Shown here one piece after another: positions 7,741 to 64,000 of a DNA stretch of 64,000 nucleotides. Position 1 is the first letter of the stretch. Each line of letters opens with the position of its first letter. Location: the NCBI RefSeq assembly GCF_045037415.1, contig NZ_CP173440.1. One strand, written 5' to 3'. The translations under genes were made by a program, and so were the position numbers. Source of the stretch: Escherichia coli (GTDB lineage Bacteria; Pseudomonadota; Gammaproteobacteria; Enterobacterales; Enterobacteriaceae). The notes under the pieces are model-generated. The model was not told the DNA's origin and did no database searches. It was given only the letters and a program-made list of their open reading frames with translations.

Positions 7741-8013
7741 AGGGATGAATTAAAATGTTAAATATAAGTTTTTTTTGTGGGCGATGAACAGAGAATTAAA
7801 GCCGGTTATTCAGGCAGGGCAGGAACAACCACCATGGATAATCGGCTCCCGGACATGTCCGGGCAAAGAAATCGTAGAACTAGCGCATGACAGTAAGGCG
7901 GGGTAATCGAGGCAATATCTCAACAGTACAAATGAAATAATGCGTTGCTGGGTGGGCACCGGCAGTCAGAGCCAGCGTTCTGCAGCTGCATCAAAGGCTA
8001 AGTGTACCTGCCA

Positions 8014-8670
8014 TTACTCCAGCTCATGAATCAGCATGCCAGCATGTTTAATGTTTAGAGTCGTCATGTTTGCATTAAGGTCTTTCATCATTCTGGTTCC
8101 GCCGCATCGCACATATTCTCTTAATCTTCCATTGTAGGCAGCGCTGGAAGCGATTTTAAGCTGCTTTATCGGACAGGGAAGATAAGCCACTCCTTTAACG
8201 AGATCGTCCTCAACAGCGTTCAGGTAAACGGGAGAGGCCGCAATGATAAAGATATCATGCCGGTACATACTAAACAGTTCCGCAAGGGAAGGGACTTTTC
8301 CAGGCAGTATGGGGTCAGAAGTCAGCATACCCCATATGCTGGCGCTCTTTCTTCCTATCTTTGTAAACGTAGCATCATAAGGGATCGCGGGGTCAGAACT
8401 GTGTCGTAGGCCCAGACCTGCAGAAATAACCCATAAACAGATATGAGAATTAGAGTTTGCAATAGACTTAGCTGTACTCCAGTGAGCACTACAGTATATG
8501 TTTTCCGTTTCCTTAATATCATCATTACATGTAGTGAATCGGGACTGCACAAGACTTTTCCATTGCTGATAGGCAATCTCAGTATCTGTCGTATGGTAGG
8601 GAAACACAGTGTCATGTACAGGTCCTGCTTTCTTTTTCGCGCATGTTGTAATGAGATGAATAGTCGACAT
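8014..8670 (-). CDS. hypothetical protein (gene 4 of a 4-gene minus-strand operon)
   Basis: Co-directional, tightly spaced ORF; no recognisable motif. Confidence 0.35.
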   Translation of the reverse strand: MSTIHLITTCAKKKAGPVHDTVFPYHTTDTEIAYQQWKSLVQSRFTTCNDDIKETENIYCSAHWSTAKSIANSNSHICLWVISAGLGLRHSSDPAIPYDATFTKIGRKSASIWGMLTSDPILPGKVPSLAELFSMYRHDIFIIAASPVYLNAVEDDLVKGVAYLPCPIKQLKIASSAAYNGRLREYVRCGGTRMMKDLNANMTTLNIKHAGMLIHELE

Positions 8671-8699
8671 TATTCAGAGCCTATAAAGAGTATTTATTA

Positions 8700-9140
8700 T
8701 CAATAAGGTAGTGTATTTAAAGATGGGTATACTGGATCATCTTCAGGCACCCAATAACCAGACCCGCACTCCCATTCTTCTCCAATGAATACGAACATTT
8801 GCCTGGCAAGATATCTCCTGAGTTCCTGAGAGATTACGCTCTCAATTTTTAACAGGTAACTCTTGTTCTTACAATGGGCTTTTAAGTGAGAAAGAAGTGT
8901 ACTGAAGCAGCCTTGATTAGTGATAAATACAGAAACTGATGAAACAACCAGAACAGGTTTACCCAGCAAAGATGCATGTTTGCTACGTGCACGTATATAC
9001 ATGTTTTCGAACAAGGCCAAGCCATCAACATGTCTGGATTTTACTGGTATAATACTTTTATTACTTTCATCCATTAGCCTTTCAAATGTATTGATTATAT
9101 TTGTAATATCAGCCTCTAATATTTTTTGATTAATTATCAT
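8700..9140 (-). CDS. hypothetical protein (gene 3 of operon)
   Basis: ORF 8700..9182; start moved to the internal ATG (MIINQK...) to limit overlap with the upstream gene. Confidence 0.3.
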   Translation of the reverse strand: MIINQKILEADITNIINTFERLMDESNKSIIPVKSRHVDGLALFENMYIRARSKHASLLGKPVLVVSSVSVFITNQGCFSTLLSHLKAHCKNKSYLLKIESVISQELRRYLARQMFVFIGEEWECGSGYWVPEDDPVYPSLNTLPY

Positions 9141-9639
9141 TGTACTCTGCAACCCCGGTGTTTGTAACATTCTTAACATCACTGATTAAACTAATATCTA
9201 CAGAATGTGCCAGTGTTGTTAGCTCGGTAAAGTTAATTTTTTCGTAATAACCATCACTGATTAAGTTTAATAAATTAAAGTCCAGGGCAGGTGGTGGGCA
9301 AATGCTTCCAGAAGTGTAAAGATACTCAAGCCCACGCGCATCAAATATGCCGTGAGGGGCACCCTCTGATAGTTTTCCACCTGAATATAACTCAACCCAT
9401 ATCCTGAGTCGGTAATCCAGAGTGAATTCACCTATCTCAATCCAGAAATGTGGATATAACTCAAAATACGTTTTGGGGTTTTTAACTACCCCGCACATTC
9501 GTTGATGAGAAATGCCTGCATGATTTAGAGCACTGCTTATCATTAATGTATGACCATCGCACTCAACGGGTGCATTCTCAATAGCCTGTAAGAGATTGTT
9601 TAACTTCACAAGACAATCGGGCATAAGGATATTGGCCAT
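9130..9639 (-). CDS. hypothetical protein (gene 2 of operon)
   Basis: ORF, 8-bp gap to the upstream gene. Confidence 0.35.
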   Translation of the reverse strand: MANILMPDCLVKLNNLLQAIENAPVECDGHTLMISSALNHAGISHQRMCGVVKNPKTYFELYPHFWIEIGEFTLDYRLRIWVELYSGGKLSEGAPHGIFDARGLEYLYTSGSICPPPALDFNLLNLISDGYYEKINFTELTTLAHSVDISLISDVKNVTNTGVAEYNDN

Positions 9640-9647
9640 ATAAATAC

Positions 9648-10061
9648 CTATTCCGGAATTTCTGAGAGGAATTCATTAAAGAGATTATCATCGTACAGTG
9701 GGTATAATTGCTTCATCATACCAAAACCGGACATAGCTGCACTTCGCAAGTCGGGATAAAAAGTAGGCTTAGTGATAAGATCGCATTCATTCTTCAGCAC
9801 ACCTTCGAAGCAGCCGTAATCTTCCCCAAACTCCTGAACTATCATCCAACGGCCATCCTTGCATTCAACTACCATAATAGCAGACTTGGGGTAGTCGCCA
9901 GCTGGGGTCAACCAATCAAAATGGTAGTGGGTGATAGTTTGATAACTCTTATGGACATTCATAGCATTAACCCTAATGCAAGACTTACAACGTGAGAGGT
10001 TAGTGTCTGATAAAGCACTGTATATATATGGGTCTTCCCTTGTTGTGGTGGCTGAAGGCAT
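9648..10061 (-). CDS. hypothetical protein (gene 1 of operon); 5' end runs into the ISL3 inverted repeat
   Basis: The first ~14 codons (…EDPYIYSAL…) are encoded by the 23-bp terminal inverted repeat of the adjacent ISL3 element, so the native 5' end is probably disrupted or replaced. Confidence 0.3.
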   Translation of the reverse strand: MPSATTTREDPYIYSALSDTNLSRCKSCIRVNAMNVHKSYQTITHYHFDWLTPAGDYPKSAIMVVECKDGRWMIVQEFGEDYGCFEGVLKNECDLITKPTFYPDLRSAAMSGFGMMKQLYPLYDDNLFNEFLSEIPE

Positions 10062-23878: not shown

Positions 23879-24301
23879 TTATTTCTTTCGGTACTGAATC
23901 TCAACTTTTTCCTCCTTTGTTTTGGCTTCAATACTTAATTCTGCGGTGGGCCTGAGTAGCAGGCGTTGCAGACCGATAGGTTCGCCTGTATCCCGGCAGA
24001 AGCCATATTCTCCTTTTTCAAGCCGCATAAGCGCTGCATCATATTTCGGCAACAGGCGGCTTTCTCTGTCTATCTGTCTGAACAGCAGACGTAACTGCTC
24101 TTCACGAATGGCGATGTCACCTTCGTCACCCGTTTCTGGATTATCCTGCAGTTGTTGCTTCATCTGGTCTATATGATCAAGCACCTCCTGCCTTTCGTGG
24201 CGGATAAGCCGCCGGAAGTAGTCCTGTTGCACAGGATTCATGTAATCTTCTGGCAGCATCGCCAGGATTTTTTCTCGTTCAGCGCGGGTAGGTTTAGTCA
24301 T
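23879..24301 (-). CDS. dksA2: DksA-like protein lacking the Cys4 zinc finger (DksA2-like)
   Basis: DksA/TraR C-terminal region is present, but only one of the four zinc-finger cysteines remains (GFCRDTG…ELSIEAK). Confidence 0.7.
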   Translation of the reverse strand: MTKPTRAEREKILAMLPEDYMNPVQQDYFRRLIRHERQEVLDHIDQMKQQLQDNPETGDEGDIAIREEQLRLLFRQIDRESRLLPKYDAALMRLEKGEYGFCRDTGEPIGLQRLLLRPTAELSIEAKTKEEKVEIQYRKK

Positions 24302-24329
24302 GTCCTGTACCGATAAAATTGCGTAATGA

Positions 24330-24348
24330 AACGTTATAACATAACATT
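24330..24348. promoter_or_regulatory. Zur-box-like operator upstream of the dksA2-like operon
   Basis: AACGTTATAACATAACATT (reverse complement AATGTTATGTTATAACGTT), about 29 bp upstream of the start codon. Confidence 0.55.
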
Positions 24349-24371
24349 AACTGCCGCTGCAAAATAACCTG

Positions 24372-25571
24372 TTAAGCCAGCCGGGCCACTTTCGTGGGCC
24401 AGGGATCGTGGAAAATCCCCCCCTGCTGCCACCAGAGAATTTCCTCTTCAGTGAGTAAACACTGGCGCAATGCGAGGGCAAAATCGTCAATTTCGCCGCT
24501 CTCGCCAATAACAGTCAGGCGGCAGCGCCGGTCACCAAATCTGCCAGGCATTTTTGCCAGTTGCTGACGGATAGCTGCGCGTTCTTCCTTTGTCAATGAA
24601 TTATCAGTGTGAGTCAGGACCCCGGCTTTCCAGTAGCTTATGAATTCGAGATTGATGCTCCCTGCTGCCTGGTTCCACAATAATGCCAGGTCATCCCTTC
24701 CCGGTAGCCAGAAAAACCCCTTGCTGCGGTAAACGCCTGCGCCCATGAAGCGATGGCAGGTATCCCACAGCCGCTGCGGATGAAATGGACGGTCATCCTC
24801 AATGACCCTCCACGAAATATCGTATTTTTTATCGGTTTCATCCGGCAAAACTGCGTCAATGGCATCCTGAAGCTCATCGATAAGTAACGCCACCCGATGA
24901 AAATCGTAATCCGGCATGGAAAGCAATTCATCCAGCTGTAAATTTCCCCAGGGCACGGCCATAATTGCAACCTGGGGATTAAGGGGATGTATGGCTCTGG
25001 CTACCTCAGTAACCACATAGAAGGGTAACCGGTCGTTTTTGGTTAATAAGAGCTTATTACAGAACATAATCTGTTCTGCCAGCAGGCTTTCCACTCCCCG
25101 GGTTCCTTTATTGAGGTGCTCCTGGAAAACCGGAATAAGCTTCTTTCCACCGTCGTAGTCATCATTAAGCATGACCGTATCAACAAGAGACAAAAATGCT
25201 TTGAGACTTACCTGGGTATGTTCTCGCAGATAGCGGACCAGGGGAAGAGGATGGCTGCTACCTGAGGTTTCCAGTAAAATAAAATCCGCAGACCGTTTTT
25301 CGAGCAGGTTTTTCAGCGCGGAATCCAGCTTCTGGATCCCGCTTCTGCTGCTGATACTGTCTGCTGAAATACTCACAAAATTGTTACTGGCTGCATCAAC
25401 GATTTCTGTGTTGGCTATCAGGACGCCATCCACATCAAGTTCACTCATGTCATTAACGATGACGGATACAGTCATTCGCCGTTTGTGTGCCTGTGTAAGA
25501 AGGTTTTTTAGCAGAGTAGTTTTCCCTGCCCCCAGAAAACCATTAAGGATAATGAGCGGTGTTCTTTTCAT
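24372..25571 (-). CDS. COG0523 (CobW/ZigA/YeiR-like) GTPase paralog with SxSA in place of the CxCC motif
   Basis: P-loop [11 protein letters not shown]. Where family members have GCICC this protein has VSISADS. Start set at MKRTPL. Confidence 0.8.
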   Translation of the reverse strand: MKRTPLIILNGFLGAGKTTLLKNLLTQAHKRRMTVSVIVNDMSELDVDGVLIANTEIVDAASNNFVSISADSISSRSGIQKLDSALKNLLEKRSADFILLETSGSSHPLPLVRYLREHTQVSLKAFLSLVDTVMLNDDYDGGKKLIPVFQEHLNKGTRGVESLLAEQIMFCNKLLLTKNDRLPFYVVTEVARAIHPLNPQVAIMAVPWGNLQLDELLSMPDYDFHRVALLIDELQDAIDAVLPDETDKKYDISWRVIEDDRPFHPQRLWDTCHRFMGAGVYRSKGFFWLPGRDDLALLWNQAAGSINLEFISYWKAGVLTHTDNSLTKEERAAIRQQLAKMPGRFGDRRCRLTVIGESGEIDDFALALRQCLLTEEEILWWQQGGIFHDPWPTKVARLA

Positions 25572-25668
25572 AGCATCCAGCCTTATGCCGCTAAACGTTA
25601 ATGCAATCAAGTTGCAATAATACCGGCTTCCTGCCAAAATTCAAATGACATGACTCGGAGGGGGAAAT

Positions 25669-26121
25669 ATGACAACACCAGTAGCCAAAACGTATGACTG
25701 GAAGCAAACGTTGCGCACACATGGTTTGCGGGCAACGCCATCCACCCTTGCTACACTGCAGTGCCTTGAACATGCCAGCCAGGCCATGAGCCATGACGAT
25801 TTAACTCAGCAACTGGGCGAGCAGGCTCCCGATCGTGTGACCCTTTACCGAATACTGGAACGGCTAATGCAGGTCAGTATTGTCCAGCGTTATACCGACT
25901 CGGCAAGAACTCAGCGTTTCGCTCTGACCCAACGGGCTGCCGTAGGACTTTTTGAATGCGATAACTGCCATCATGTTATTCCTATTGAGCAGGATCCAGC
26001 CCTGGAAGCGGCCATTGAATTGGTAAAATCACATCTCACTGGACATGGTATGACCGAACGGGAAATTACCCTTTCCAGTCATGGTATCTGTCCGGACTGT
26101 AATCGTACTATCACCAAATAA
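25669..26121 (+). CDS. zur: Fur-family metalloregulator, probable Zur
   Basis: CDNCHH…CPDC motifs of the Fur family; divergent from a COG0523 gene and co-directional with the CysRS paralog. Confidence 0.7.
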   Translation: MTTPVAKTYDWKQTLRTHGLRATPSTLATLQCLEHASQAMSHDDLTQQLGEQAPDRVTLYRILERLMQVSIVQRYTDSARTQRFALTQRAAVGLFECDNCHHVIPIEQDPALEAAIELVKSHLTGHGMTEREITLSSHGICPDCNRTITK

Positions 26122-27620: not shown

Positions 27621-27639
27621 TTGTTATGTTATAACGTAA
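27621..27639. promoter_or_regulatory. Zur-box-like operator
   Basis: TTGTTATGTTATAACGTAA, 17 bp upstream of the flavoprotein start codon. Confidence 0.55.
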
Positions 27640-27655
27640 TGCAAAGGGTAATTTT

Positions 27656-28786
27656 ATGAACCAACCACGCGAAGTCGTTATTGTCGGTGCGGGTCCGGCC
27701 GGGGTGGGTATGGCGGCGCTTCTTCGTCGTAGTGCCATACAGGATATCCTGGTCGTTGACAGTCACGAAGTAGGTGCCTCCTTTATGCGCTGGCCGGAAG
27801 AAACCCGTTTTATTACTCCTTCTTTTTTTTCCAATCCGTTTGGACAACCAGACCTGAACTCTGTGACCCCTGACAGTTCATTGGCGCTTTTCTGCGGTGA
27901 AGAACATCCTGGGGGGAAAACTTATGCCAGTTACCTTAAGGCCGTACTGGATGAGTATCAGATACCCGTCATGGCTCCCGCCAGGATTGCAAAGGTTGCG
28001 TTGCTCAGTTCCGGTAATTTTATACTGATAACAGAAGCAGGAGAGAAGCTGGAAACACGCTCTTTAATATGGGCTACAGGCGAATTCCAGTTCCCAGACC
28101 GGCAGATTTTTCCTGGAGCAGATATTTGTTGCCATTACGGTGATGTGACCAGCTGGAAGGATTTCAGGAAAGGTGAATACATTGTTATAGGCGGCTATGA
28201 AAGCGCGGTGGATGCCGCTGTAAACCTGCTGGAAAATGGCTCATCGGTAAAAATGTTAACCCGCTCAGCCCCTTGGTCAACTAACCACATCAGCGATCCC
28301 AGTCTATCGCTTTCCCCTTATACCCGTGAGCGTTTGAACAGAGTGATGAATCACCGTCTTTTCGAAATTTATGAAGATGCGGATGTCTGTGAAGTAATCA
28401 GAATGCCCGGCCCGGGAAGTTCGTACAAAGTCCATACCACAAACGGACGCGCCTGGGCTACTGACGAGGTGCCTGTGCTTGCTACCGGCTTCCAGTGTGG
28501 CGGAGGAGCAAGGCAACTGGCTGCTTTTTTTGAATGGAATGATGATGGCTATCCGGTCTTAACGGACGAAGACTGCTCAACCCTTTTTCCTGGTTTGTAC
28601 CTTGTCGGCCCTCATGTGCGGCATGCCGGTAATATTTATTGCTTTATCTATAAGTTCCGTCAGCGCTTTCCCGTCGTGGCAGAAAGTATCACGCGTCATC
28701 TGGGCCTGTCCTCTGAAGGAGTACGGGACTGGTGGGTTCTGCCTTCAGAGCCTGACTGCTGTGCCGATGAGGACTGTGCGTGCTGA
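27656..28786 (+). CDS. FAD/NAD(P)-binding flavoprotein (flavin-monooxygenase or thioredoxin-reductase-like) with Cys-rich C-terminus
   Basis: VVIVGAGPAGVG FAD-binding fold, second GG…AVDAA dinucleotide motif, LATGFQ motif, C-terminal CCADEDCAC. Confidence 0.6.
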   Translation: MNQPREVVIVGAGPAGVGMAALLRRSAIQDILVVDSHEVGASFMRWPEETRFITPSFFSNPFGQPDLNSVTPDSSLALFCGEEHPGGKTYASYLKAVLDEYQIPVMAPARIAKVALLSSGNFILITEAGEKLETRSLIWATGEFQFPDRQIFPGADICCHYGDVTSWKDFRKGEYIVIGGYESAVDAAVNLLENGSSVKMLTRSAPWSTNHISDPSLSLSPYTRERLNRVMNHRLFEIYEDADVCEVIRMPGPGSSYKVHTTNGRAWATDEVPVLATGFQCGGGARQLAAFFEWNDDGYPVLTDEDCSTLFPGLYLVGPHVRHAGNIYCFIYKFRQRFPVVAESITRHLGLSSEGVRDWWVLPSEPDCCADEDCAC

Positions 28787-30447
28787 GGTCCGTGTTTATG
28801 CAATCATTCGTTTTAATGGGATTAGAAAGTGCAGGAAAATCTACCCTGTTTAATATCCTGACGGAAAGTGCTGCCAGTGATGAGCGTAATTTCAGGGGAT
28901 CGACCGTTGTATGTCGGGAAGGTCTCATTAATGATGCAGGGATCTGCCTGGTTGATACGCCAGGCATACGTTTTCAGAGCGACAGTGAAACCACAAAACT
29001 CGCCCTTGATGCGCTAAATCAGCATGATGGCATTCTGGTGGTTCTGCGGGCCACGCACGCTCAGCAGGAGTGGCAAACGCTCTGTCACCTCATACCGCCA
29101 CAGGCAAAACACGTTGTTATACTCCTGACCTTTGCTGATAAGATCAGAAAGGGCCTTCTGGAAGTGACTGAATACCTGAGTGAAACATCAGGTGCGCCGG
29201 TACTGGCAGTCAATGCCCGGGAAGCTGGCAGCAATGTTCGCCAGGGAATAGTGCAGTTGCTGTTGCAGGATAAACCTGCACCCTCCGCTGTCTCTTTACC
29301 CCGTCAAAAGATACCGGTAATTAATCTGCTGGCTGAATTTCCTCAACAAACGATATTTGAACATCGTTGGTGTGGAAAAGTTGCTGCAATAGTATGCCTT
29401 TTCCTGCTGTTTGCCGTTCCGGTATGGGGGGCATGGCTGCTGTCAGATTTTATTCAGCCTGTCATTGACAGTGCGGTTATTCAGCCGCTTAAGAATATAA
29501 CGACGAGCTGGCCCGACGTTCTGAAGACACTATTTGTCGGCAATTACGGTCTTTTTAGTCTGGGACTTTATTCGTTTGTATGGGCATTTCCTGTGGTGGT
29601 ACTGATAGGGTTGTCTCTTTCGCTGACTGACGACAGTGGACTTAAGGAAAGAATTACAGCGACGCTGGATCCCTGGTTGAGAAAACTCGGCCTCAGCGGT
29701 CAGGACCTTATTCCTGTATTAAGCGGTTTCGGCTGTAATGTCGTGGCGGTTTTTCAGAGCCGTTCGTGTTCGCGATGCACCCGGCATGCTTGTATAAGTA
29801 TGATTAGCTTTGGGTCCGCTTGCAGCTATCAGACGGGGGCGACGCTTTCTCTTTTTAATGCCGCCCATCAACCATGGCTCTTTATCCCCTATCTCAGTCT
29901 GCTGTTTTTCACAGGCGCAATACATACGCGCCTCTGGAACGGGTCGTTGAAGCCTGGCCAAAACCAGCGTCTGACAGAGATCACCTGGCTACAATGGCCA
30001 CGCTGGCGAAATGTGACATGGATGCTGAAAAATATCCTCCGTCAGTTCATTACGCAAGCCATGCCGTTATTCCTGATTATCTGCATTGTTGCGGGGATGC
30101 TTGATTACGCAGGGATCACTCGCTGGCTGAGTGAAACGACGGCACCTTTACTTCATCTTTTTAAACTGCCAGCAGAACTGATGCCCGGGATCATTTTTTC
30201 ACTGCTAAGGAAAGATGGTTTGATGGTGCTCAATCAGGATGGCGGCAGCTTAATACAGTCTCTCAGCACATCTCAGTTACTGCTACTTGTCTGGCTCGCC
30301 TCTACGTTGATGGCCTGCCTTGTCACGGTATTTACCATCGCCCGGGAAATAAACTGGCGGTTTGCAGCAGCAGTGGCGGGAAAACAGGTATTAAGTTCTC
30401 TGGTGGTGGCTCTGGTGATATCCCAGTTATTTATTCATGAGGCATAA
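28780..30447 (+). CDS. FeoB-family transporter with a divergent G-domain
   Basis: G1 GLESAGKSTLFN and G3 DTPG; membrane domain with LSGFGCNVVAV gate-like motif; shorter than canonical FeoB. Confidence 0.6.
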   Translation: MLRSVFMQSFVLMGLESAGKSTLFNILTESAASDERNFRGSTVVCREGLINDAGICLVDTPGIRFQSDSETTKLALDALNQHDGILVVLRATHAQQEWQTLCHLIPPQAKHVVILLTFADKIRKGLLEVTEYLSETSGAPVLAVNAREAGSNVRQGIVQLLLQDKPAPSAVSLPRQKIPVINLLAEFPQQTIFEHRWCGKVAAIVCLFLLFAVPVWGAWLLSDFIQPVIDSAVIQPLKNITTSWPDVLKTLFVGNYGLFSLGLYSFVWAFPVVVLIGLSLSLTDDSGLKERITATLDPWLRKLGLSGQDLIPVLSGFGCNVVAVFQSRSCSRCTRHACISMISFGSACSYQTGATLSLFNAAHQPWLFIPYLSLLFFTGAIHTRLWNGSLKPGQNQRLTEITWLQWPRWRNVTWMLKNILRQFITQAMPLFLIICIVAGMLDYAGITRWLSETTAPLLHLFKLPAELMPGIIFSLLRKDGLMVLNQDGGSLIQSLSTSQLLLLVWLASTLMACLVTVFTIAREINWRFAAAVAGKQVLSSLVVALVISQLFIHEA

Positions 30448-30713: not shown

Positions 30714-31937
30714 TCATTCTTCGAACCAGGGCTCAACAGGATCGGAATAATGCCGCCACTTTTGAGGCCCTTCTGCCATTTCTGCATCCGTTAACAGGGC
30801 GGAATCCAGTCTGTTGCGCAGTTCTGATTCATTCATATCCATTCCAATAAAAACGAGTTCCTGACGGGCATCACCAATGCCATCTATCCAGTTAGACATG
30901 ATGAACTTCAGTGACTCAGCATCCTCTGGCCAACGTCCTTTCGGCACACTAGCCCACCACATGCCCCCCAGCCCCTGGCGCGCAATGCCACCTGCCTGCG
31001 ACCATGAACCTGCGAATTCCGGACGGCTGGCCAGCCAGAAGTAACCTTTTGATCTGACGACTCCATCCAGCTCATTTTCCATCACCTGCCAGAAACGGGT
31101 CGGATGAAAAGGCCGGCGGGCGCGAAAGACAAAGCTGGTGATCCCATATTCTTCTGTCTCCGGCGTATGTTCGCCCCGGAGTTCTTTAAGCCAGCCGGGT
31201 GCCTGAGCGGCCTGCTCGAAATCAAACAGCCCGGTATTAAGTATGTTGCCCAGCGGAACCTGTCCAAACTGTGAAACAACGATTCTGGCCCGTGGATTAA
31301 GCGAACGTAAAATCGCCATCAGTTTTTCTTTTTGCGCTTCACTGATAAGGTCAACTTTATTAAGGACCAGCACATCACAGAATTCAATCTGATCGATCAG
31401 CAAGTCAACAACGCTCCTTTCATCACCTTCACCTAACGATTCTCCGCGTGACTGAATGCTGTCTTCCGAACCGTAGTCTTTCAGAAAATTGTACGCATCC
31501 ACCACAGTGACCATGGTGTCAAGGCGGGCCACCGTCGAAAGGCTTTCACCGTCATCGCCCGCAAAGGTAAATGTTTCAGCAACAGGCAGAGGCTCAGATA
31601 TACCGGTGGACTCAATGACAAGCTGATCAAAACGCCCTTCTTTTGCCAGACGATTAACTTCGAGAAGAAGATCTTCGCGCAATGTGCAGCAAATGCAACC
31701 GTTGCTCATTTCTACCAGTTTTTCATCAGTCCGGGAGAGTTCTGCACCACCTTCCCTCACAAGGGCAGCATCAATATTCACCTCAGACATATCATTAACA
31801 ATGACAGCAACACGACGGCCTTCCCGGTTGTTCAGAATATGGTTAAGCAGTGTCGTTTTCCCTGCTCCCAAAAATCCCGAAAGTACGGTAACCGGCAGGC
31901 GTTTATCGCCATGAAAATTTGCACTGACTTCGGACAT
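30714..31937 (-). CDS. COG0523 GTPase with canonical CxCC motif
   Basis: P-loop [11 protein letters not shown] and GCICCTL metal motif, followed by a CobW_C-like C-terminal domain. Confidence 0.8.
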
Positions 31938-32393: not shown

Positions 32394-32411
32394 ATGTTAC
32401 GTTATAACATA
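32394..32411. promoter_or_regulatory. Zur-box-like operator
   Basis: ATGTTACGTTATAACATA, 13 bp upstream of the hisI-like start, in the divergent region with a Fur-family regulator gene. Confidence 0.55.
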
Positions 32412-32519
32412 TCAAACATAATTGCCAGTTATCACGATTTCACAGGCACTGTACTTCTTGGGTAACATCTGACCGGAAAAAGAAACAAAGCAAATGTGAT
32501 AGAGGCAGCAGGAGGCAAG

Positions 32520-33020
32520 ATGAATAACAAACTACATTCTGAATTGATTAAGAAAGCTATGTTCCCGGATCTAGGCTGTTCAGAATTTAGGGAACTGACT
32601 GCCCGTAAGGCGATGCGAATTACTCCGATGCGGATGATGGTGTATCACTTCATCAGGTGTGCTGAAGACAAAGGTATCAGTGCATACCAAATCCTTGACC
32701 AGTTAAAATCATATAACCCAAATGCAAAACCAACTACTGTTTATCGTACTCTGGATTATCTACAACAGGCTGGAGTCATTGTAAAAATAGAAAGCTGTAG
32801 CAAGTTTGTAAAAAAGAATAGCTTTCCCCATGAAGGATTAACACTTTTTATGATTTGTTCAAACTGCGGTACAATCATTCAGCATACAGACAGCAAAATA
32901 CAATATTACGTTGAGGATAAATCACATGAATATGGGTATATTATGCAAAGAAAGGACATAGAAATCAGTATAATTTGTCCCGGTTGTCAGGCTAATGAAA
33001 AAATGGCGCAATCTGGGTGA
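32520..33020 (+). CDS. second Fur-family regulator (low-GC, divergent from the hisI-COG0523 operon)
   Basis: Winged-helix region and CSNCG…CPGC structural-zinc-type motifs. Start set at MNNKLH. Confidence 0.6.
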   Translation: MNNKLHSELIKKAMFPDLGCSEFRELTARKAMRITPMRMMVYHFIRCAEDKGISAYQILDQLKSYNPNAKPTTVYRTLDYLQQAGVIVKIESCSKFVKKNSFPHEGLTLFMICSNCGTIIQHTDSKIQYYVEDKSHEYGYIMQRKDIEISIICPGCQANEKMAQSG

Positions 33021-33395: not shown

Positions 33396-34390
33396 CTACA
33401 GTTTAGCCAACCCATGTTTTCCACCGGGGAATGGGCTGACGGTATTCATAAAGTGACGAACCTTTTTCAACAGTTTCCACATTGAGTGGCACTGATGATT
33501 TCGGGTTATTGTCTCGTGAAGCGCCTGCCACAACCGTTCGACATGATTGACCCGCGGCGAGTAAACCGGCTGATAAATTACCCTGAACTTCGGGTTTGCT
33601 TTCAGCCAACGCAACGTTTCACGGCTTTTGTGGATGATGTGGTTATCGACAATGAGCGTAATCGTTTTTGCCCGCCGGTATGTCGCCTTCAGATGTTTTA
33701 AGTCTGATAAATAAGGAAGAACCTTTACTGTTTCCACTAACGTAGCTGGCTTTTCCTGTATCGCTGTGCAGCGCACCGGCAAGATAGTACTTTTCATTCT
33801 GGCCCAGCGTGACTACGCGCTTTTGCTGCCCGCGCAGATGCCAGTCAGCACCAATTTTGGGATTGAGGTGAATATCCACTTCATCTTCGTAAAATACGGG
33901 GTTTTCCGCACTGCATTCGCCAGTGCTTCATGGATAGCGACCATTTTTTCTTCTTTGTGTGGGGCACGGATACGCAGTGTCGGCGCTGCTCTCCGCCATA
34001 CCAGTCCGGCAGCAGGTAACCATCGCCGGATGGTTGAAGCATGTAGCGGACAACCGATAACATCACGGACTTTTATCGCCAGCAGTTCGGTGCTCCAGCG
34101 GGAACGCTGATAACTGAAATCGCCGGGAGAATGCTTAACAAGCTCAAGCAGCAATGCGCAAATATGTTCGAACGGCCAGCGCCTCCCACGTCCTGACGGC
34201 AATGATTTCAGGCCTTCAGTACCAGACAGCGTGAACCAGTTAATCTAGCGACCAATCGATGAGCGGGCACAGCAGAGCGTTCTGGCAACATGACTGACGG
34301 TGTCACCATGATGCAGCATCAGCATGGCGGTGAGCCGCCGGGCGAGGTTTTTGTCCTTTGTTTTATTGATATTTTTATCCATCAGGCGTC
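33396..34390 (-). pseudogene. IS630-family transposase, broken into three or more frames
   Basis: ORFs 33396..33797 (DDE C-terminus, …YQPVYSPRVNHVERLW…) and 33813..34202 (N-terminal part), plus an HTH piece near 34250-34390. Confidence 0.55.
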
Positions 34391-36175: not shown

Positions 36176-36533
36176 TTGAAAAACGGATGCGTGTTATCTG
36201 TAATTCTGTTTGCGCAATGCACGAAGCAGAATGTGAATTCATTTACACACATGAGTTTTCACCTACAGTCGATCATCCGCGGGAAACTGCATATGCAATT
36301 GACGCAGCGGTTCGCGTATTCGGCGAAAAAAATGTGGATTCCACGGTGACGTGTTCATACTCAAATCTCCTGCAATATGGGAGATTTGAGTATGGTTGTA
36401 CCTTGTGAGCGAACAGCGGGAATTCGCAAATGTTTCACATCTGATCAAGGCATTACTTAAAGGATGCTGTGGTAGCCAACGGGGAGCAGGTCAAAGCAAT
36501 TACAAATTGGTTTGAATTGCAACATCATGCAAA

Positions 36534-36553
36534 TAAATGTTATGTTATCACAT
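36534..36553. promoter_or_regulatory. Zur-box-like operator (one mismatch to the window consensus)
   Basis: AAATGTTATGTTATCACATT, about 25 bp upstream of the probable ATPase start. Confidence 0.45.
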
Positions 36554-57543: not shown

Positions 57544-57561
57544 TTGTTATGTTATAACATT
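57544..57561. promoter_or_regulatory. Zur-box-like operator
   Basis: TTGTTATGTTATAACATT, the best match to the window consensus. Confidence 0.55.
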
Positions 57562-57999: not shown

Positions 58000-58827
58000 A
58001 TGAAGCGCAATACCGTAAGTAATCTGACAGAAAAAGATGATTTTGATACGCTGGAAAGTATTCTCAGCGTTAATATTCATTCTCTGTTGCGGCCAGACGG
58101 CGGGACGTTGCTTTCTGACGTCCATTTTGCGGTCAAAGCAGGAGAATGTCTGGCCATTATCGGGCCTAACGGCAGCGGTAAAACTTCCCTCGTGAGAGCG
58201 ATTAGTCAGGAACTGACCCATCTAAAGGGGGACATTCTTCTGCGGGGCCGTTCTATGTCTGCTTTATCCCGTCAACAGCGAGCCCGGCTGGTTGCTGTTT
58301 TGGCCCAGAATGATACACCTGATACGAGATTATCCCTTGAGGATTATGTAGCGCTGGGGCGTATCCCTCATGCCGGGGATGTACCGCGTAATGTACATGA
58401 CGCGATTGTAGCAAATGCCATTAAAGAAACCGGATTACAACGGCTACGCAGGCGGTCACTTTTATCGCTTTCCGGCGGCGAAAGACAACGAGCGGCGCTG
58501 GCACGGGTACTGGCACAGACGCCCGACCTGGTATTGCTTGATGAACCCACCAATCATCTCGATCCTCCCGGGCGCGAGGAACTGCTTTCCCTTGTAAAAA
58601 ACAAGGGGATTGCCGTCGTGGCGGTGTTGCACGATCTGACACTGACAGAATCATTTGCTGACCGTGTTCTCCTCTTGTCGCAGGGGCAATCAGTGATCTG
58701 TGACACACCGGAGAAGGTATTGGTATCAGAATACCTTTATCCCGTTTTTGGCTTGACCAGTTTTACCGTACCGCATCCCCATACAGGAAAGGCGTTGCGT
58801 ATTTTTGAAGTTCCGCATTATGTATAA
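58000..58827 (+). CDS. ABC transporter ATP-binding protein (FecE/FhuC/BtuD-like)
   Basis: GPNGSGKTS, LSGGERQR, LLDEPT. Confidence 0.8.
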   Translation: MKRNTVSNLTEKDDFDTLESILSVNIHSLLRPDGGTLLSDVHFAVKAGECLAIIGPNGSGKTSLVRAISQELTHLKGDILLRGRSMSALSRQQRARLVAVLAQNDTPDTRLSLEDYVALGRIPHAGDVPRNVHDAIVANAIKETGLQRLRRRSLLSLSGGERQRAALARVLAQTPDLVLLDEPTNHLDPPGREELLSLVKNKGIAVVAVLHDLTLTESFADRVLLLSQGQSVICDTPEKVLVSEYLYPVFGLTSFTVPHPHTGKALRIFEVPHYV

Positions 58828-58845
58828 ATTACTTTCCGAGAGTCA

Positions 58846-59805
58846 GTGATGAAAAAATTGTTTATATCCCTGCTGTCGGTACTGTCTGCTTCAGTAGCCA
58901 GTGCTGCCGATTTTCCTGTTACTATTGAAAGTTGTGGGACTCCTGTAACATTCTCCGGCCCGCCGAAAAGGGCTGTGATCAACGACCTTAATATGGCAGA
59001 GATGGCGTTTGCACTGGATTTGCAGGATCGTATTGTTGGGCTGACCGGTATTAGTGGCTGGTACAAAATGACGCCGGAATTTAAAAAGGCGATGGGCTCG
59101 ATCCCTGAACTGGCACCCAAATATCCCACCCTGGAAACATTGCTGGCAGCCGAGCCTGATTTCTTTTTCGCTGGCTGGAACTATGGAATGAAAGTAGGCG
59201 GCGAAGTGACGCCGGATACGTTAAGCAAATATGGCATCAAGACTTTCGTTCTGAGTGAAAGCTGTGTGTTCACCACTGCGCACAAAAATAAAGCCACGAT
59301 GGATCTGCTGTATAACGATATCCTCACGCTGGGTAAGATTTTTGGCAAGCGCAATGACGCACTGTCCCTAGTCAGCGGCTGGCAAAAGAGGCTGAGTGAA
59401 CTGCCGAAGCCAGCGGCAGGTACCCGTCCTTTAAAGGTGTTCGTCTACGACTCAGGTGAGGATAAACCGTTTACCAGTGGTAAATATGCGATGCCTACGG
59501 CCATGATTGAGGCGGCTGGTGGTAAAAATGCAATGGAGGCGCTGGATACCAGTTGGGGAACGACGTCTTGGGAAAGCGTGGCCGCTACTGAGCCGGACTT
59601 CATTATTTTGTTAGATTACCAGACGGGCAGCGGTGCGGATACACTGCGTCATTTTCTTGAGAATCATCCGTTAATGAAACTGACTCCGGCTGTTCAGCAT
59701 CATCGATACCTGAAATTACAATATGCTGAACTGACGCCGGGACCAGCTAATGTTGGTGCGGTGGAAAAACTCGCGTGGGCAATGTACCCGACAGAAGCGA
59801 AGTGA
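58846..59805 (+). CDS. class III periplasmic binding protein (FecB/FhuD/BtuF-like)
   Basis: Signal peptide; size and pattern of chelate/cobalamin-type binding proteins. Confidence 0.65.
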   Translation: MMKKLFISLLSVLSASVASAADFPVTIESCGTPVTFSGPPKRAVINDLNMAEMAFALDLQDRIVGLTGISGWYKMTPEFKKAMGSIPELAPKYPTLETLLAAEPDFFFAGWNYGMKVGGEVTPDTLSKYGIKTFVLSESCVFTTAHKNKATMDLLYNDILTLGKIFGKRNDALSLVSGWQKRLSELPKPAAGTRPLKVFVYDSGEDKPFTSGKYAMPTAMIEAAGGKNAMEALDTSWGTTSWESVAATEPDFIILLDYQTGSGADTLRHFLENHPLMKLTPAVQHHRYLKLQYAELTPGPANVGAVEKLAWAMYPTEAK

Positions 59806-60809
59806 TGCTCATGTCGTACCGTTATCACTGGGTGATGTGGGGATCGATGGTCGTGCTGATTGGGTTAATGTTATTCAGCATAACCAGAGGGACAGTCTCA
59901 CTGTCGCTAATGCAGGTGCTGGGTGCACTGAAGATTGTGGATGAGCCGGTATCTGCCATGGTCAGCAGAATTGTGACGGATTTACGCGTACCGAGGATGT
60001 TGCTCTCTGTGCTGACAGGGGCGGGACTGGCAATGGTAGGGGCATTGTTACAAACTACCACCCGTAACGATCTGGCTGATCCTTTTTTATTCGGGTTATC
60101 CTCCGGTGCGTCAGCAGGAGCGGTGCTGGTGATCACCCGTTTTGGTGATCGACTAGGAGTATTAACGCTCCCCGTATCGGCGTTTGTTGGTGGTGTGTGT
60201 TCCGCCATAGCAGTAATGCTGTTATTTCATTTTAAAAAGCAACGCGGAGCTGAGCATCTAATTCTCTGCGGTCTTGCCATCTCTTTTTTGTTCGGGGCGC
60301 TGACTAGTTATTTTATTTTTTCGGGCGATCAGCGAGCCGCCAGCTCAGTGCTTTTCTGGTCACTGGGTGGCCTGGGATTAGCCACCTGGAATAATTTGCC
60401 TTTTGCAGTGTTCAGCCTGGTATTGCTGTTTGCCTTTGTCCTGTTGCGGTGGCGCTCTCTGGATGGTGTGCTGGCAGGAGAACAAACAGCGTTGTCGCTG
60501 GGGATTAACGTGAGTCGTCTGCGCATCGAGATTTTTCTTTGTTGTGCACTGGCAACATCGTTGATGGTGGCATTAACCGGCGTGATTGGATTTGTTGGCT
60601 TAATGGTGCCTCATCTGTGTCGGCATTTTGCAGGAGTTAAGCATCTGTTGTTGTTACCTCTGTGTGGCGTCTGGGGTGCAATATTACTGTGTGTCGGCGA
60701 TATAGTCAGCCGGACGATACTGGCACCACAGGAACTACCAATTGGCATTATTACGGCGGGCATTGGAGGGTTGTTTATTATCATGTTACTCGCGCGAAAC
60801 TCGCCCTAG
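59805..60809 (+). CDS. FecCD-family ABC permease
   Basis: Multi-TM protein with FecCD-like motifs; TGATG stop/start overlap with the binding-protein gene. Confidence 0.7.
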   Translation: MLMSYRYHWVMWGSMVVLIGLMLFSITRGTVSLSLMQVLGALKIVDEPVSAMVSRIVTDLRVPRMLLSVLTGAGLAMVGALLQTTTRNDLADPFLFGLSSGASAGAVLVITRFGDRLGVLTLPVSAFVGGVCSAIAVMLLFHFKKQRGAEHLILCGLAISFLFGALTSYFIFSGDQRAASSVLFWSLGGLGLATWNNLPFAVFSLVLLFAFVLLRWRSLDGVLAGEQTALSLGINVSRLRIEIFLCCALATSLMVALTGVIGFVGLMVPHLCRHFAGVKHLLLLPLCGVWGAILLCVGDIVSRTILAPQELPIGIITAGIGGLFIIMLLARNSP

Positions 60810-61129
60810 AGAATATGGGCGATTACTCGCCGGGCCTCCTGTAATTTTCAAGCGATGTTATGAAACGATGGTAATCTAACTGATGGTTTGAGCGTGCCAT
60901 GTAAGTAAAGAAGAACTGGCAAACCTTAATGTTGCATTATATCATAACAAATGATAAGTGAGGCCCAATGTTTCTCTTACTGGTCGTGCTCCCAAGCATG
61001 CCTTTGGCGAAAAGGTTAGACCTCAGGCTGCGTTCAGCAACTACATGATATCTGTCTGGATTGTGACGGAGATGCGGTACTACTGCTTGTGGTTCAAAAA
61101 GGTGAAGCCTGCCACACAAGTCGGCGGAG

Positions 61130-61552
61130 TTGTTTTTACAACGCTACCGCCGGCCTTTTCATCCGACCCGTTTCTGGCAGGTGATGGAAAATGAGCTGGA
61201 TGAAGTCGTCAGATCAAAAGGTTACTTCTGGCTGGCCAGCCGTCCGGAATTCGCAGGTTCATGGTCACAGGCTGGTGGCATTGCGCGCCAGGCGCTGGGG
61301 GGCATGTGGTGGGCGAGTGTGCCGAAAGAACGTTGGCTAGAGGATGCTGAGTCACTGAAGTTCATCATGTCTAACTGGATAGATGGCATTGGTGATGCCC
61401 GTCAGGAACTCGTTTTTATTGGAATGGATATGAATGAATCAAAACTGCGCAACAGACTGGATTCCGCCCTGTTAACGGATGCAGAAATGGCTGAAGGGCC
61501 TCAAAATTGGCGGCATTATCCCGATCCTGTTGAGCCTTGGTTCGAAGAATGA
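61130..61552 (+). pseudogene. C-terminal fragment of a COG0523 gene (about 95% identical to the C-terminus of the 30714..31937 product)
   Basis: …[18 protein letters not shown]…PVEPWFEE aligns to the C-terminus of the 30714..31937 protein; no N-terminal GTPase domain. Confidence 0.6.
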
Positions 61553-62404: not shown

Positions 62405-62540
62405 ATGGAAATATGGAAATATGGAAATATGGAAATATGGAAATATGGAAATATGGAAATATGGAAATATGGAAATATGGAAATATGGAAATATGGAAAT
62501 ATGGAAATATGGAAATATGGAAATATGGAAATATGGAAAT
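62405..62540. repeat. 17 perfect tandem copies of the 8-bp unit ATGGAAAT
   Basis: 136 bp of uninterrupted ATGGAAAT repeats in the intergenic region. Confidence 0.95.
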
Positions 62541-62665
62541 GAGGTAAGAAACAGAAGACTATAAAATTTGAAGTCAAAAATGGTAACTGAGCTCCTCCTC
62601 GTTTGGGTGCTTAGGAGATATAACTAGTGGAGAATGAAATATAACTATTACTGCAAAATAACCTG

Positions 62666-63865
62666 TTAAGCCAGCCGGGCCACTTTCGTGGGCCAGGGAT
62701 CGTGGAAAATCCCCCCCTGCTGCCACCAGAGAATTTCCTCTTCAGTGAGTAAACACTGGCGCAATGCGAGGGCAAAATCGTCAATTTCGCCGCTCTCGCC
62801 AATAACAGTCAGGCGGCAGCGCCGGTCACCAAATCTGCCCGGCATTTTTGCCAGTTGCTGACGGATAGCTGCGCGTTCTTCCTTTGTCAATGAATTATCA
62901 GTGTGAGTCAGGACCCCGGCTTTCCAGTAGCTTATGAATTCGAGATTGATGCTCCCTGCTGCCTGGTTCCACAATAATGCCAGGTCATCCCTTCCCGGTA
63001 GCCAGAAAAAACCCTTGCTGCGGTAAACGCCTGCGCCCATGAAGCGATGGCAGGTATCCCACAGCCGCTGCGGATGAAATGGGCGGTCATCCTCAATGAC
63101 CCGCCACGAAATATCATATTTTTTGTCGGGTTCATCCGACAAAACTGCATCAATTGCATCCTGAAGCTCATCGATAAGTAACGCCACCCGATGAAAATCG
63201 TAATCCGGCATGGAAAGCAATTCATCCAGCTGTAAATTTCCCCAGGGCACGGCCATAATTGCAACCTGCGGATTAAGGGGATGTATGGCTCTGGCTACCT
63301 CAGTAACAACATAGAAGGGTAATCTGTCGTTTTTGGTTAACAAGAGCTTATTACAGAACATAATCTGTTCTGCCAGCAGGCTTTCCACTCCCCGGGTCCC
63401 TCTGTTGAGGTGCTCCTGGAAAACCGGAATAAGTTTCTTTCCACCGTCGTAGTCATCATTAAGCATGACCGTATCTACAAGCGACAAAAATGCTTTAAGA
63501 CTTACCTGGGGGTGTTCTCGCAGATAGCGGACCAGGGGAAGAGGATGGCTGCTGCCTGACGTTTCCAGTAAAATAAAATCCGGAGACCGTTTTTCGAGCA
63601 GGTTTTTCAGCGCGGAATCCAGCTTCTGGATCCCACTTCTGCTGCTGATACTGTCTGCTGAAATACTCACAAAATTGTTACTGGCTGCATCAACGATTTC
63701 TGTGTTGGCTATCAGGACGCCATCCACATCAAGTTCACTCATGTCATTAACGATGACGGATACAGCCATTCGCCGTTTGTGTGCCTGTGTAAGAAGGTTT
63801 TTTAGCAGAGTAGTTTTTCCTGCTCCCAGAAAACCATTAAGGATAATGAGCGGTGTTCTTTTCAT
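62666..63865 (-). CDS. second copy of the SxSA-type COG0523 GTPase paralog
   Basis: Protein differs from the 24372..25571 product at only a handful of positions; DNA identity begins right after the stop codon (24357 / 62652). Confidence 0.8.
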   Translation of the reverse strand: MKRTPLIILNGFLGAGKTTLLKNLLTQAHKRRMAVSVIVNDMSELDVDGVLIANTEIVDAASNNFVSISADSISSRSGIQKLDSALKNLLEKRSPDFILLETSGSSHPLPLVRYLREHPQVSLKAFLSLVDTVMLNDDYDGGKKLIPVFQEHLNRGTRGVESLLAEQIMFCNKLLLTKNDRLPFYVVTEVARAIHPLNPQVAIMAVPWGNLQLDELLSMPDYDFHRVALLIDELQDAIDAVLSDEPDKKYDISWRVIEDDRPFHPQRLWDTCHRFMGAGVYRSKGFFWLPGRDDLALLWNQAAGSINLEFISYWKAGVLTHTDNSLTKEERAAIRQQLAKMPGRFGDRRCRLTVIGESGEIDDFALALRQCLLTEEEILWWQQGGIFHDPWPTKVARLA

Positions 63866-63961
63866 AGCATCCAGCCTTATGCCGCTAAACGTTAATGCAA
63901 TCAAGTTGCAATAATACCGGCTTCCTGCCAGAATTCAAATGACATGACTCGGAGGGGGAAA

Positions 63962-64000
63962 TATGGCAACACCAGTAGCCAAAACGTATGACTGGAAGCA
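63962..64000 (+). CDS. zur: second copy of the Zur-like regulator gene, 5' end only (runs off the window)
   Basis: ATGGCAACACCAGTAGCCAAAACGTATGACTGGAAGCA matches the start of the 25669 gene with one substitution. Confidence 0.55.

Follow-up and report, generated by a model that had tools for sequence, protein, structure and literature searches.

The protein described here is encoded twice in a 64,000-nucleotide window of contig NZ_CP173440.1, from Escherichia coli assembly GCF_045037415.1. It is a predicted GTPase of the CobW/COG0523 fold without the cysteines of the CxCC motif (hereafter, the Cys-less protein). Copy 1 occupies positions 24372..25571 and copy 2 positions 62666..63865, both on the minus strand. 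The preliminary description of this DNA had listed them as two near-identical copies, and both are indeed intact open reading frames (ORFs) of 399 amino acids (aa), with six amino acid differences between them. They lie in a stretch of repeated DNA (24357-25706 and 62651-64000; 97.6% identity) that reaches the end of the window. The two genes differ at 30 codons, with 24 synonymous and 6 nonsynonymous changes, which corresponds to 0.098 synonymous substitutions per site (dS) and 0.0065 nonsynonymous ones (dN), with a dN/dS ratio of 0.067.

The protein consists of a cobW domain (Pfam ID PF02492; E = 1e-25) followed by a CobW_C domain (PF07683; E = 2.8e-16). Its AlphaFold2 model, built from 77 homologs, has a predicted local distance difference test (pLDDT) score of 90.3 and a predicted template modeling (pTM) score of 0.88, and the top match among the solved structures, in both sequence and fold, is YjiA. 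The G1 (Walker P-loop) element is found at 25515..25541, the G3 (Walker B) element at 25251..25271, and the G4 element, TKND in place of the canonical NKxD, at 25032..25043 (all on the minus strand, as are the other protein features given below). These elements fit the family patterns GxxGxGK(S/T), ExxG, and (N/T)KxD, all of which are conserved across the clade; the P-loop, GFLGAGKTT, had already been noted as retained and is conserved in canonical and Cys-less proteins alike. The C-terminal domain contains the sequence RSKG (24717..24728), an instance of the RxKG "arginine finger" motif (10.64898/2026.03.03.709369), which ZigA and MigC have been shown to require (same reference). R282-S-K-G285 is invariant in 77 sequences. 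Residues shared by the near relatives, the deep members of the clade, and the canonical proteins include G11-T19, N40, D41, D48, E101, G104, K178, D180, R282, K284, and G285.

In COG0523 proteins, a CxCC motif, termed "family-defining and invariant" in the literature on this family (including preprint 10.64898/2026.03.03.709369), is located between switch I and Walker B. At that position, the Cys-less protein contains S72-I-S-S75 (SxSS; 25347..25358, or 63641..63652 in copy 2). The register was set by a 78-sequence alignment that included such intermediates as NNGSISG, SGGSVGG, AGSISG, and GGSIHS, together with the secondary structure of the model. The canonical N-G-C-I-C-C aligns there opposite A-D-S72-I-S-S75. 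The model shows a strand at residues 65-69, a loop at 70-75, and a helix at 76-92, so that SISS occupies the loop between the strand and the helix; in YjiA, we take CxCC to lie at the equivalent strand-to-helix junction. The preliminary description was right that the cysteines are gone, but the SISA that it named as their replacement (residues 67-70; 25362..25373) lies five residues upstream, in the preceding β-strand, and is not the counterpart of CxCC according to the alignment, the model, and the translation. Three other registers, obtained with MAFFT from 4 sequences, with MAFFT from 21 sequences, and with phmmer against YjiA, disagreed with one another and were discarded in favor of the 78-sequence alignment and the model.

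All three motif serines are encoded by AGY codons, one transversion away from the TGY codons of Cys. The only Cys residues in the protein are 171, 272, 350, and 371. Neither copy has a Cys between switch I and Walker B, and residues 1-170 contain none. Judged from the translated sequence, the canonical thiolate site is absent from a protein that otherwise keeps every known GTPase element.

Besides having Ser or Gly in place of each of the three motif cysteines, this clade has several other specific features. The canonical ESTGISE of the Walker B region becomes E101-T-S-G-S-S-H107, NKxD becomes TKxD, a Gln is replaced by C350, and the conserved linker motif is lost. His107 is present in all 16 near relatives and in 7 of the 13 deep members; the canonical proteins have Glu or Asp at this position in 43 of 43 cases. 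C350 shows the same distribution in the clade (16/16 and 7/13). Among the near relatives, S75 is kept in 16 of 16 and S74 in 14 of 16. The linker (residues 236-255; 24807..24866) reads PDETDKKY, without the PETEEY of ZigA-type proteins; it has no majority residue across the subfamily and is modeled with low confidence (pLDDT 56 for block 241-250).

The 120 best homologs extend down to 53% identity and come from Klebsiella, Pectobacterium, Kosakonia, Pantoea, Erwinia, Brenneria, Rouxiella, Obesumbacterium, Vibrio, Shewanella, and Celerinatantimonas. The motif is readable in 117 of them, and all 117 lack its cysteines (the other three are truncated or unreadable), with the consensus NF(V/I)(S/T)(I/L)(S/A)ADSISS. 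In a scan of 1.84 billion representative proteins, all readable full-length sequences with E values from 1e-156 to about 1e-45 are Cys-less, and canonical CICC proteins start at about 1e-43, with a few Cys-less ones below that. A neighbor-joining tree groups the Cys-less sequences into one clade, with the ZigA-like clade next to it. The clade extends over Enterobacterales, Vibrio, Shewanella, Planctomycetota, Bacteroidota, and Verrucomicrobiota; its deep members come from Bacteroidota, Chthoniobacterales, and metagenome-assembled genomes of other Pseudomonadota, and their motif region is variable (SVGG, SLGG, AAGD). An Akkermansiaceae member has also been found. A search of the genome collection with the pattern GFLG[AS]GKTT caught every COG0523 protein and said little about the distribution of close relatives; among the matches listed, 5 of 80 loci are Cys-less. 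The distribution of the variant, proposed earlier as a check, is that of a conserved clade found in several phyla. The loss of the cysteines is an old, selected trait of the clade as a whole and did not arise as an accident of this locus.

A marine branch of the clade, at roughly 50% identity, is found in Pirellulaceae, Planctomycetaceae, Phycisphaerae, and Crocinitomicaceae and reads SI(Y/H)SCVLSS in the motif region. In this branch (locus L004, positions 8001-10981, and loci L009-L012), a Cys occupies the Walker B +2 position (ETSGSCHP), and the segment SI(H/Y)SCVLSS places a His/Cys pair immediately before the old CxCC site. The occurrence of such proteins at about 50% identity across Planctomycetota, Bacteroidota, and a contig of gammaproteobacterial type suggests horizontal transfer.

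The window is 100% identical to large hybrid virulence/resistance plasmids of Klebsiella pneumoniae, for example, phvKpST395_NDM1_1657 (IncFIB/IncHI1B), with rmpA, peg-344, and iucA nearby. This DNA is that of a pLVPK-type K. pneumoniae virulence plasmid, and the Cys-less gene is its "cobW" marker. The exact protein represents 1,921 database sequences. The gene occurs 1,209 times in 691 plasmid records, which indicates that a plasmid usually carries two copies. So far it is known as an annotation, "cobW" or "GTP-binding protein," and is used as a marker of hypervirulent K. pneumoniae plasmids, where it is described as a cobalamin gene. That description is unsupported, since the protein scores 73.7 bits against the cut-off of 332 for CobW proper (TIGR02475) and no cob genes are found nearby; the "cobW" label is a misnomer.

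On the plasmid, copy 1 sits in a zinc-starvation island of zinc-independent paralogs. The island comprises hemB2, pyrC2, a gene for an M14 peptidase, thrS2, a DUF1460 gene, a QueD-like gene, the gamma-carbonic anhydrase gene (cam), folE2, and dksA2, followed by the Cys-less gene, a Fur-family gene, and cysS2, then by genes encoding a flavin oxidoreductase and a FeoB-like protein, and finally by zigA, hisI2, and a gene of the Zur-like type. Its link to Zur has been known since 2009 (Haas et al.). Immediately downstream of copy 1 is dksA2 (23879..24301, minus strand), whose product keeps only one of the four zinc-finger Cys residues. The hisI2-zigA operon encodes a canonical ZigA (30714..31937, minus strand) that contains both GCICC, as had been stated for this neighbor, and PETEEY and scores 702 bits against the NF038288 cut-off of 600. 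The Fur/Zur-family regulators reported nearby are also there. One of them, encoded at 25669..26121 on the plus strand, divergently from copy 1, is a 150-aa protein that keeps both CxxC pairs and shows weak matches to Fur, PerR, and Zur; its gene heads a run with cysS2. The other is the Zur-like gene at 32496..33020.

Several further features of the island were observed. The thrS2 gene (19062-20099) encodes about 333 to 345 aa, versus 650 to 682 aa in Kosakonia and at locus L093. The shortening looks like an internal deletion by which the TGS domain has been fused with the C-terminal half; the product may therefore not be a working synthetase. The flavin oxidoreductase (YpdA/ArsO-like, its C terminus a CCADEDCAC tail) and the FeoB-like GTPase-permease (27656-30447) form a pair preceded by a Zur box, and this pair is conserved in Kosakonia and L093. 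An IS630-like transposase gene, split into two ORFs (33396-34202), borders the island.

The surroundings of copy 2 consist of gene remnants. A second zigA is represented by an inverted C-terminal fragment (61130..61552, plus strand; 96.5% DNA identity to the intact gene), which adjoins an inverted hisI fragment (60974..61144; 92% identical). Together (60974-61552), these seem to be what is left of another, disrupted hisI2-zigA operon. Beside copy 2, past the end of the window (L006, 14474-14860), is a Fur-family gene whose product has lost 32 aa, in frame, from the DNA-binding region and has a scrambled C terminus without the second CxxC; the adjoining GTPase gene is intact. With its own regulator damaged, copy 2 would depend on the copy 1 regulator in trans. 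At 62405-62540, between copy 2 and a methyltransferase gene, the 8-bp unit ATGGAAAT is repeated 17 times in a perfect tandem array, which yields a spurious ORF with repeated FPYFHISI.

Canonical Zur boxes are found in the 70-bp gap between the stop codon of copy 1 and dksA2 (24327..24348; the duplicated segment starts just beyond, at 24357), between hisI2-zigA and the Zur-like gene (32395..32414), and at 27622-27641. Haas et al. (2009) flagged the pLVPK cluster and predicted Zur boxes solely for hisI2-yciC and dksA2-folE2-cam (Additional file 5 of that work). These are the boxes at 32395-32414 and 24327-24348, respectively; the one at 27622-27641 is additional. Further canonical matches are seen at 36538-36552, upstream of the ORFs at 36512.., and at 57545-57559, upstream of an ABC transporter (58000-60809, annotated as an iron ABC permease), which may be zinc regulated. 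The upstream region of copy 1 itself (25572..25668) was searched for a canonical Zur box, and none was found.

That region contains instead a 23-bp palindrome, TTAATGCAAT-caa-GTTGCAATAA (25598..25620; 63892..63914 at copy 2), which is a candidate operator of the divergent promoter region. A σ70-like promoter of copy 1, TTGAAT-16-TATTAT (25617..25644, minus strand; identified by consensus match only), overlaps it with its -10 element. The palindrome has the consensus TTAAYGCAAY-N3-GTTGCAWTAA, which is distinct from the Zur box. Two tandem copies of it lie upstream of thrS2-M14-pyrC2-hemB2 (20091..20144). In the window, it occurs at these four sites only, before both GTPase copies and twice before thrS2, for 8 strand matches where 0.06 would be expected. 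It is conserved at the orthologous sites in the Kosakonia chromosome (L002; 7951-7973 and 12364-12386) and in L093 (7943-7965 and 11314-11336), including the one upstream of thrS in both, and the GTPases encoded at these two loci are 76% and 68% identical, respectively, to the plasmid protein. The divergent 150-aa Fur-family protein presumably binds this palindrome, and the distribution of the sites suggests a second Fur-family regulon inside the zinc island.

Beyond the plasmids, the complete island is found on the chromosome of Kosakonia radicincitans and, likewise chromosomal, in L093. The divergent Fur-family gene is arranged in L002 and L093 as it is on the plasmid, and the Cys-less gene is also next to dksA2 in L002, L093, and L094. 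In Brenneria izadpanahii, only the Cys-less gene and dksA2 remain, and a canonical Zur box lies upstream of the former. In Obesumbacterium proteus, the Cys-less gene is part of a folE2-cam-variant-x-pyrC2 operon, likewise preceded by a Zur box. A contig of soil type (L090) combines four cobW genes, one of them Cys-less, with two copies of znuA, znuBC, hisI, folE2, and a FUR gene. A ZigA ortholog is encoded adjacent to the Cys-less gene or within a few kilobases of it in three phyla (L004, L011, and L013), and another COG0523 gene is found within 10 kb in 8 of the 15 contexts examined.

The closest known relatives are ZigA and ZagA (YciC), which form COG0523 "cluster 1" (NF038288). They share with the Cys-less protein the two-domain fold, G1, G3, G4, and RxKG, and the ZigA type also has a similar genomic setting (in the Zur regulon, beside folE2, dksA2, and hisI2). 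NF038288 is the best NCBIfam match, and the ZigA-type proteins make up the sister clade. However, the Cys-less protein is only about 30% identical to ZigA, scores 203.4 bits against the 600-bit cut-off, and differs in having SxSS for CxCC, ETSGSSH for ESTGISE, TKxD for NKxD, and no PETEEY linker; it reaches no curated NCBIfam cut-off. In ZigA and MigC, zinc is held by three Cys thiolates in an S3(N/O) site; its binding at this site activates GTP hydrolysis, an effect that is gated by E258 of PETEEY.

The only solved COG0523 structures are those of E. coli YjiA (PDB entries 1NIJ, 4IXM, and 4IXN). YjiA is 18% identical to the Cys-less protein and has CICC and a shorter C-terminal domain. In 4IXN, an engineered E37A/C66A/C67A variant, the loss of the site is man-made, whereas in the Cys-less protein it is natural. 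Two COG0523 proteins offer precedents for roles other than metal chaperoning. MigC of Acinetobacter baumannii, a COG0523 paralog, works by contact with another protein, as an inhibitor of MurD, rather than by any proven delivery of metal; unlike the Cys-less protein, it retains CxCC, its GTPase is zinc activated, and it is confined to Acinetobacter and not Zur regulated. The mycobacterial relative Mrf / Rv0106 has a nonchaperone job in zinc starvation. The CxCC of Rv0106 is degenerate (Haas et al., 2009), but its GTPase motifs are also lost, whereas the Cys-less protein keeps them fully, and the latter scores 71.8 bits against the Mrf model cut-off of 375 (NF047431).

The C-minus paralogs DksA2 and L31B/L36B resemble the Cys-less protein in that they too belong to zinc-starvation regulons and have replaced Cys ligands. 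However, they are paralogs of zinc-using proteins, whereas the Cys-less GTPase is a paralog of a presumed zinc chaperone. A second COG0523 gene beside zigA in a Zur cluster is also known from Pseudomonas (Haas "subfamily 11," PA5532-like). Identity of the Cys-less clade with that subfamily or with PA5535 was considered and rejected: PA5535 is ZigA, and the second gene of P. entomophila encodes a 324-aa protein with GGCLCC, which places it in a different lineage. Literature phrase searches returned no description of a conserved Cys-less COG0523 clade.

We lean toward regarding these proteins as a clade of CobW/COG0523-fold GTPases with a role in zinc limitation, the zinc-independent counterpart of a zinc chaperone GTPase. 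In this old sister clade of the ZigA-type zinc metallochaperones, serine or glycine stands in for the three thiolate ligands. With no thiolates at the CxCC position and PETEEY lost, the protein should be unable to hold zinc as ZigA does; with all elements for nucleotide binding and hydrolysis kept, it should go through its GTP cycle without activation by zinc, unlike ZigA and MigC. It would be produced within the zinc-limitation program, as its relatives behind canonical Zur boxes would be. On the plasmid and in the Kosakonia-type chromosomal islands, it has its own putative promoter, overlapped by the palindrome to which the divergent Fur-family protein presumably binds. Once zinc becomes too scarce to load a CxCC site, it might act as a nucleotide switch on a client or partner, in parallel to DksA2 and the other cysteine-free paralogs encoded around it. 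The earlier suggestion of a metal-independent GTPase partner or regulator, as opposed to a classical metallochaperone, is partly supported: the canonical site is absent and the gene lies beside Fur/Zur-family regulators, but metal independence and the partner or regulator role are hypothetical. In a more specific version, put forward tentatively, the protein would replace the zinc-dependent chaperone, keeping the GTP-driven handling of clients but having either no metal site or an interdomain His107/Cys350 site for another metal, and would be controlled by a second, previously uncharacterized Fur-family sensor with its own 23-bp operator, as part of a two-tier starvation response.

Several observations weigh against the zinc-independent counterpart. 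Within the window, the gene has no canonical Zur box of its own, which makes its regulation by zinc here an indirect conclusion. Four or five contexts have no zinc-related neighbor (L003, L009, L089, and L092; in L007, the gene lies beside a Cus/Czc efflux pump). His107, invariant in the near relatives, is located three residues after the Walker B glycine, at what we take to be the position of the switch II metal ligand in HypB. Together with the clade-specific Cys350, it could point to a metal site that has moved, not to one that is absent. As to novelty, the sequence similarity network (SSN) review by Edmonds (2021) may treat Cys-less clusters differently, and an earlier mention there is possible.

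A protein with such a relocated site would still be a metallochaperone, acting on another metal or through ligands drawn from His107 (switch II), Asp71, and Cys350, with Cys371 of the C-terminal domain. It might load Fe(II), Mn(II), or Co(II) into the neighboring alternative-metal paralogs (FolE2, gamma-carbonic anhydrase, PyrC2, and the QueD2-like protein). We consider this possible but rather unlikely. The distribution of His107 and Cys350 within the clade, with an acidic residue at position 107 of every canonical protein, speaks for it, as do the place of the Obesumbacterium gene inside its folE2-cam-variant-x-pyrC2 operon and the His and Cys just before the motif in the marine sub-branch (SIHSCVLSS). 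However, Ser and Gly are poor ligands of transition metals, the deep members of the clade show no conserved ligands at positions 71-75, and neither His107 nor Cys350 is universal.

A nonchaperone role is less probable still. The protein could engage in protein-protein contacts, associate with the ribosome, or serve as a regulatory partner of ZigA, with one zinc-binding member per pair. Such a role could resemble that of mycobacterial Mrf, a recruiter of a hibernation factor, or that of MigC, which binds and inhibits MurD. In favor of the idea, members of four phyla have a ZigA ortholog or other COG0523 gene next to the Cys-less gene or within 10 kb of it, and the adjacency to dksA2 recurs; the degenerate CxCC of Rv0106 and the action of MigC through MurD binding favor it as well. 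There is also a weak match to NF047431 ("ribosome hibernation factor-recruiting GTPase MRF"), but at 72 bits it is far under the cut-off and weaker than that of ZigA itself (207 bits), and the gene stands alone in several genomes. Finally, the gene could be a decaying or nonfunctional zigA duplicate or a product of sequencing or assembly error, the latter having been named at the outset as something that would undo the claim. The ring of remnants around copy 2 (the zigA and hisI fragments and the damaged regulator) could be read in this way. Yet the dN/dS ratio, the two intact ORFs, the 30% identity to ZigA, the same motif in the 691 plasmid records and in many genera, and the conservation of the replacement motif along with the GTPase residues exclude decay or artifact for practical purposes.

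Present models of COG0523 function start from zinc on CxCC, a motif that is taken as invariant and family defining. A natural, widespread, and selected Cys-less clade with a whole GTPase offers a separation-of-function case in which the GTPase role of COG0523 proteins can be viewed apart from the holding of zinc. If the two-tier response is real, Zur would control zigA, dksA2, and folE2, and the second regulator would control the Cys-less GTPase, cysS2, thrS2, pyrC2, and hemB2. The gene is usually carried twice on the plasmids of hypervirulent K. pneumoniae, and its place within a large island of zinc-independent enzymes is relevant to the way in which these bacteria cope with the withholding of zinc by the host.

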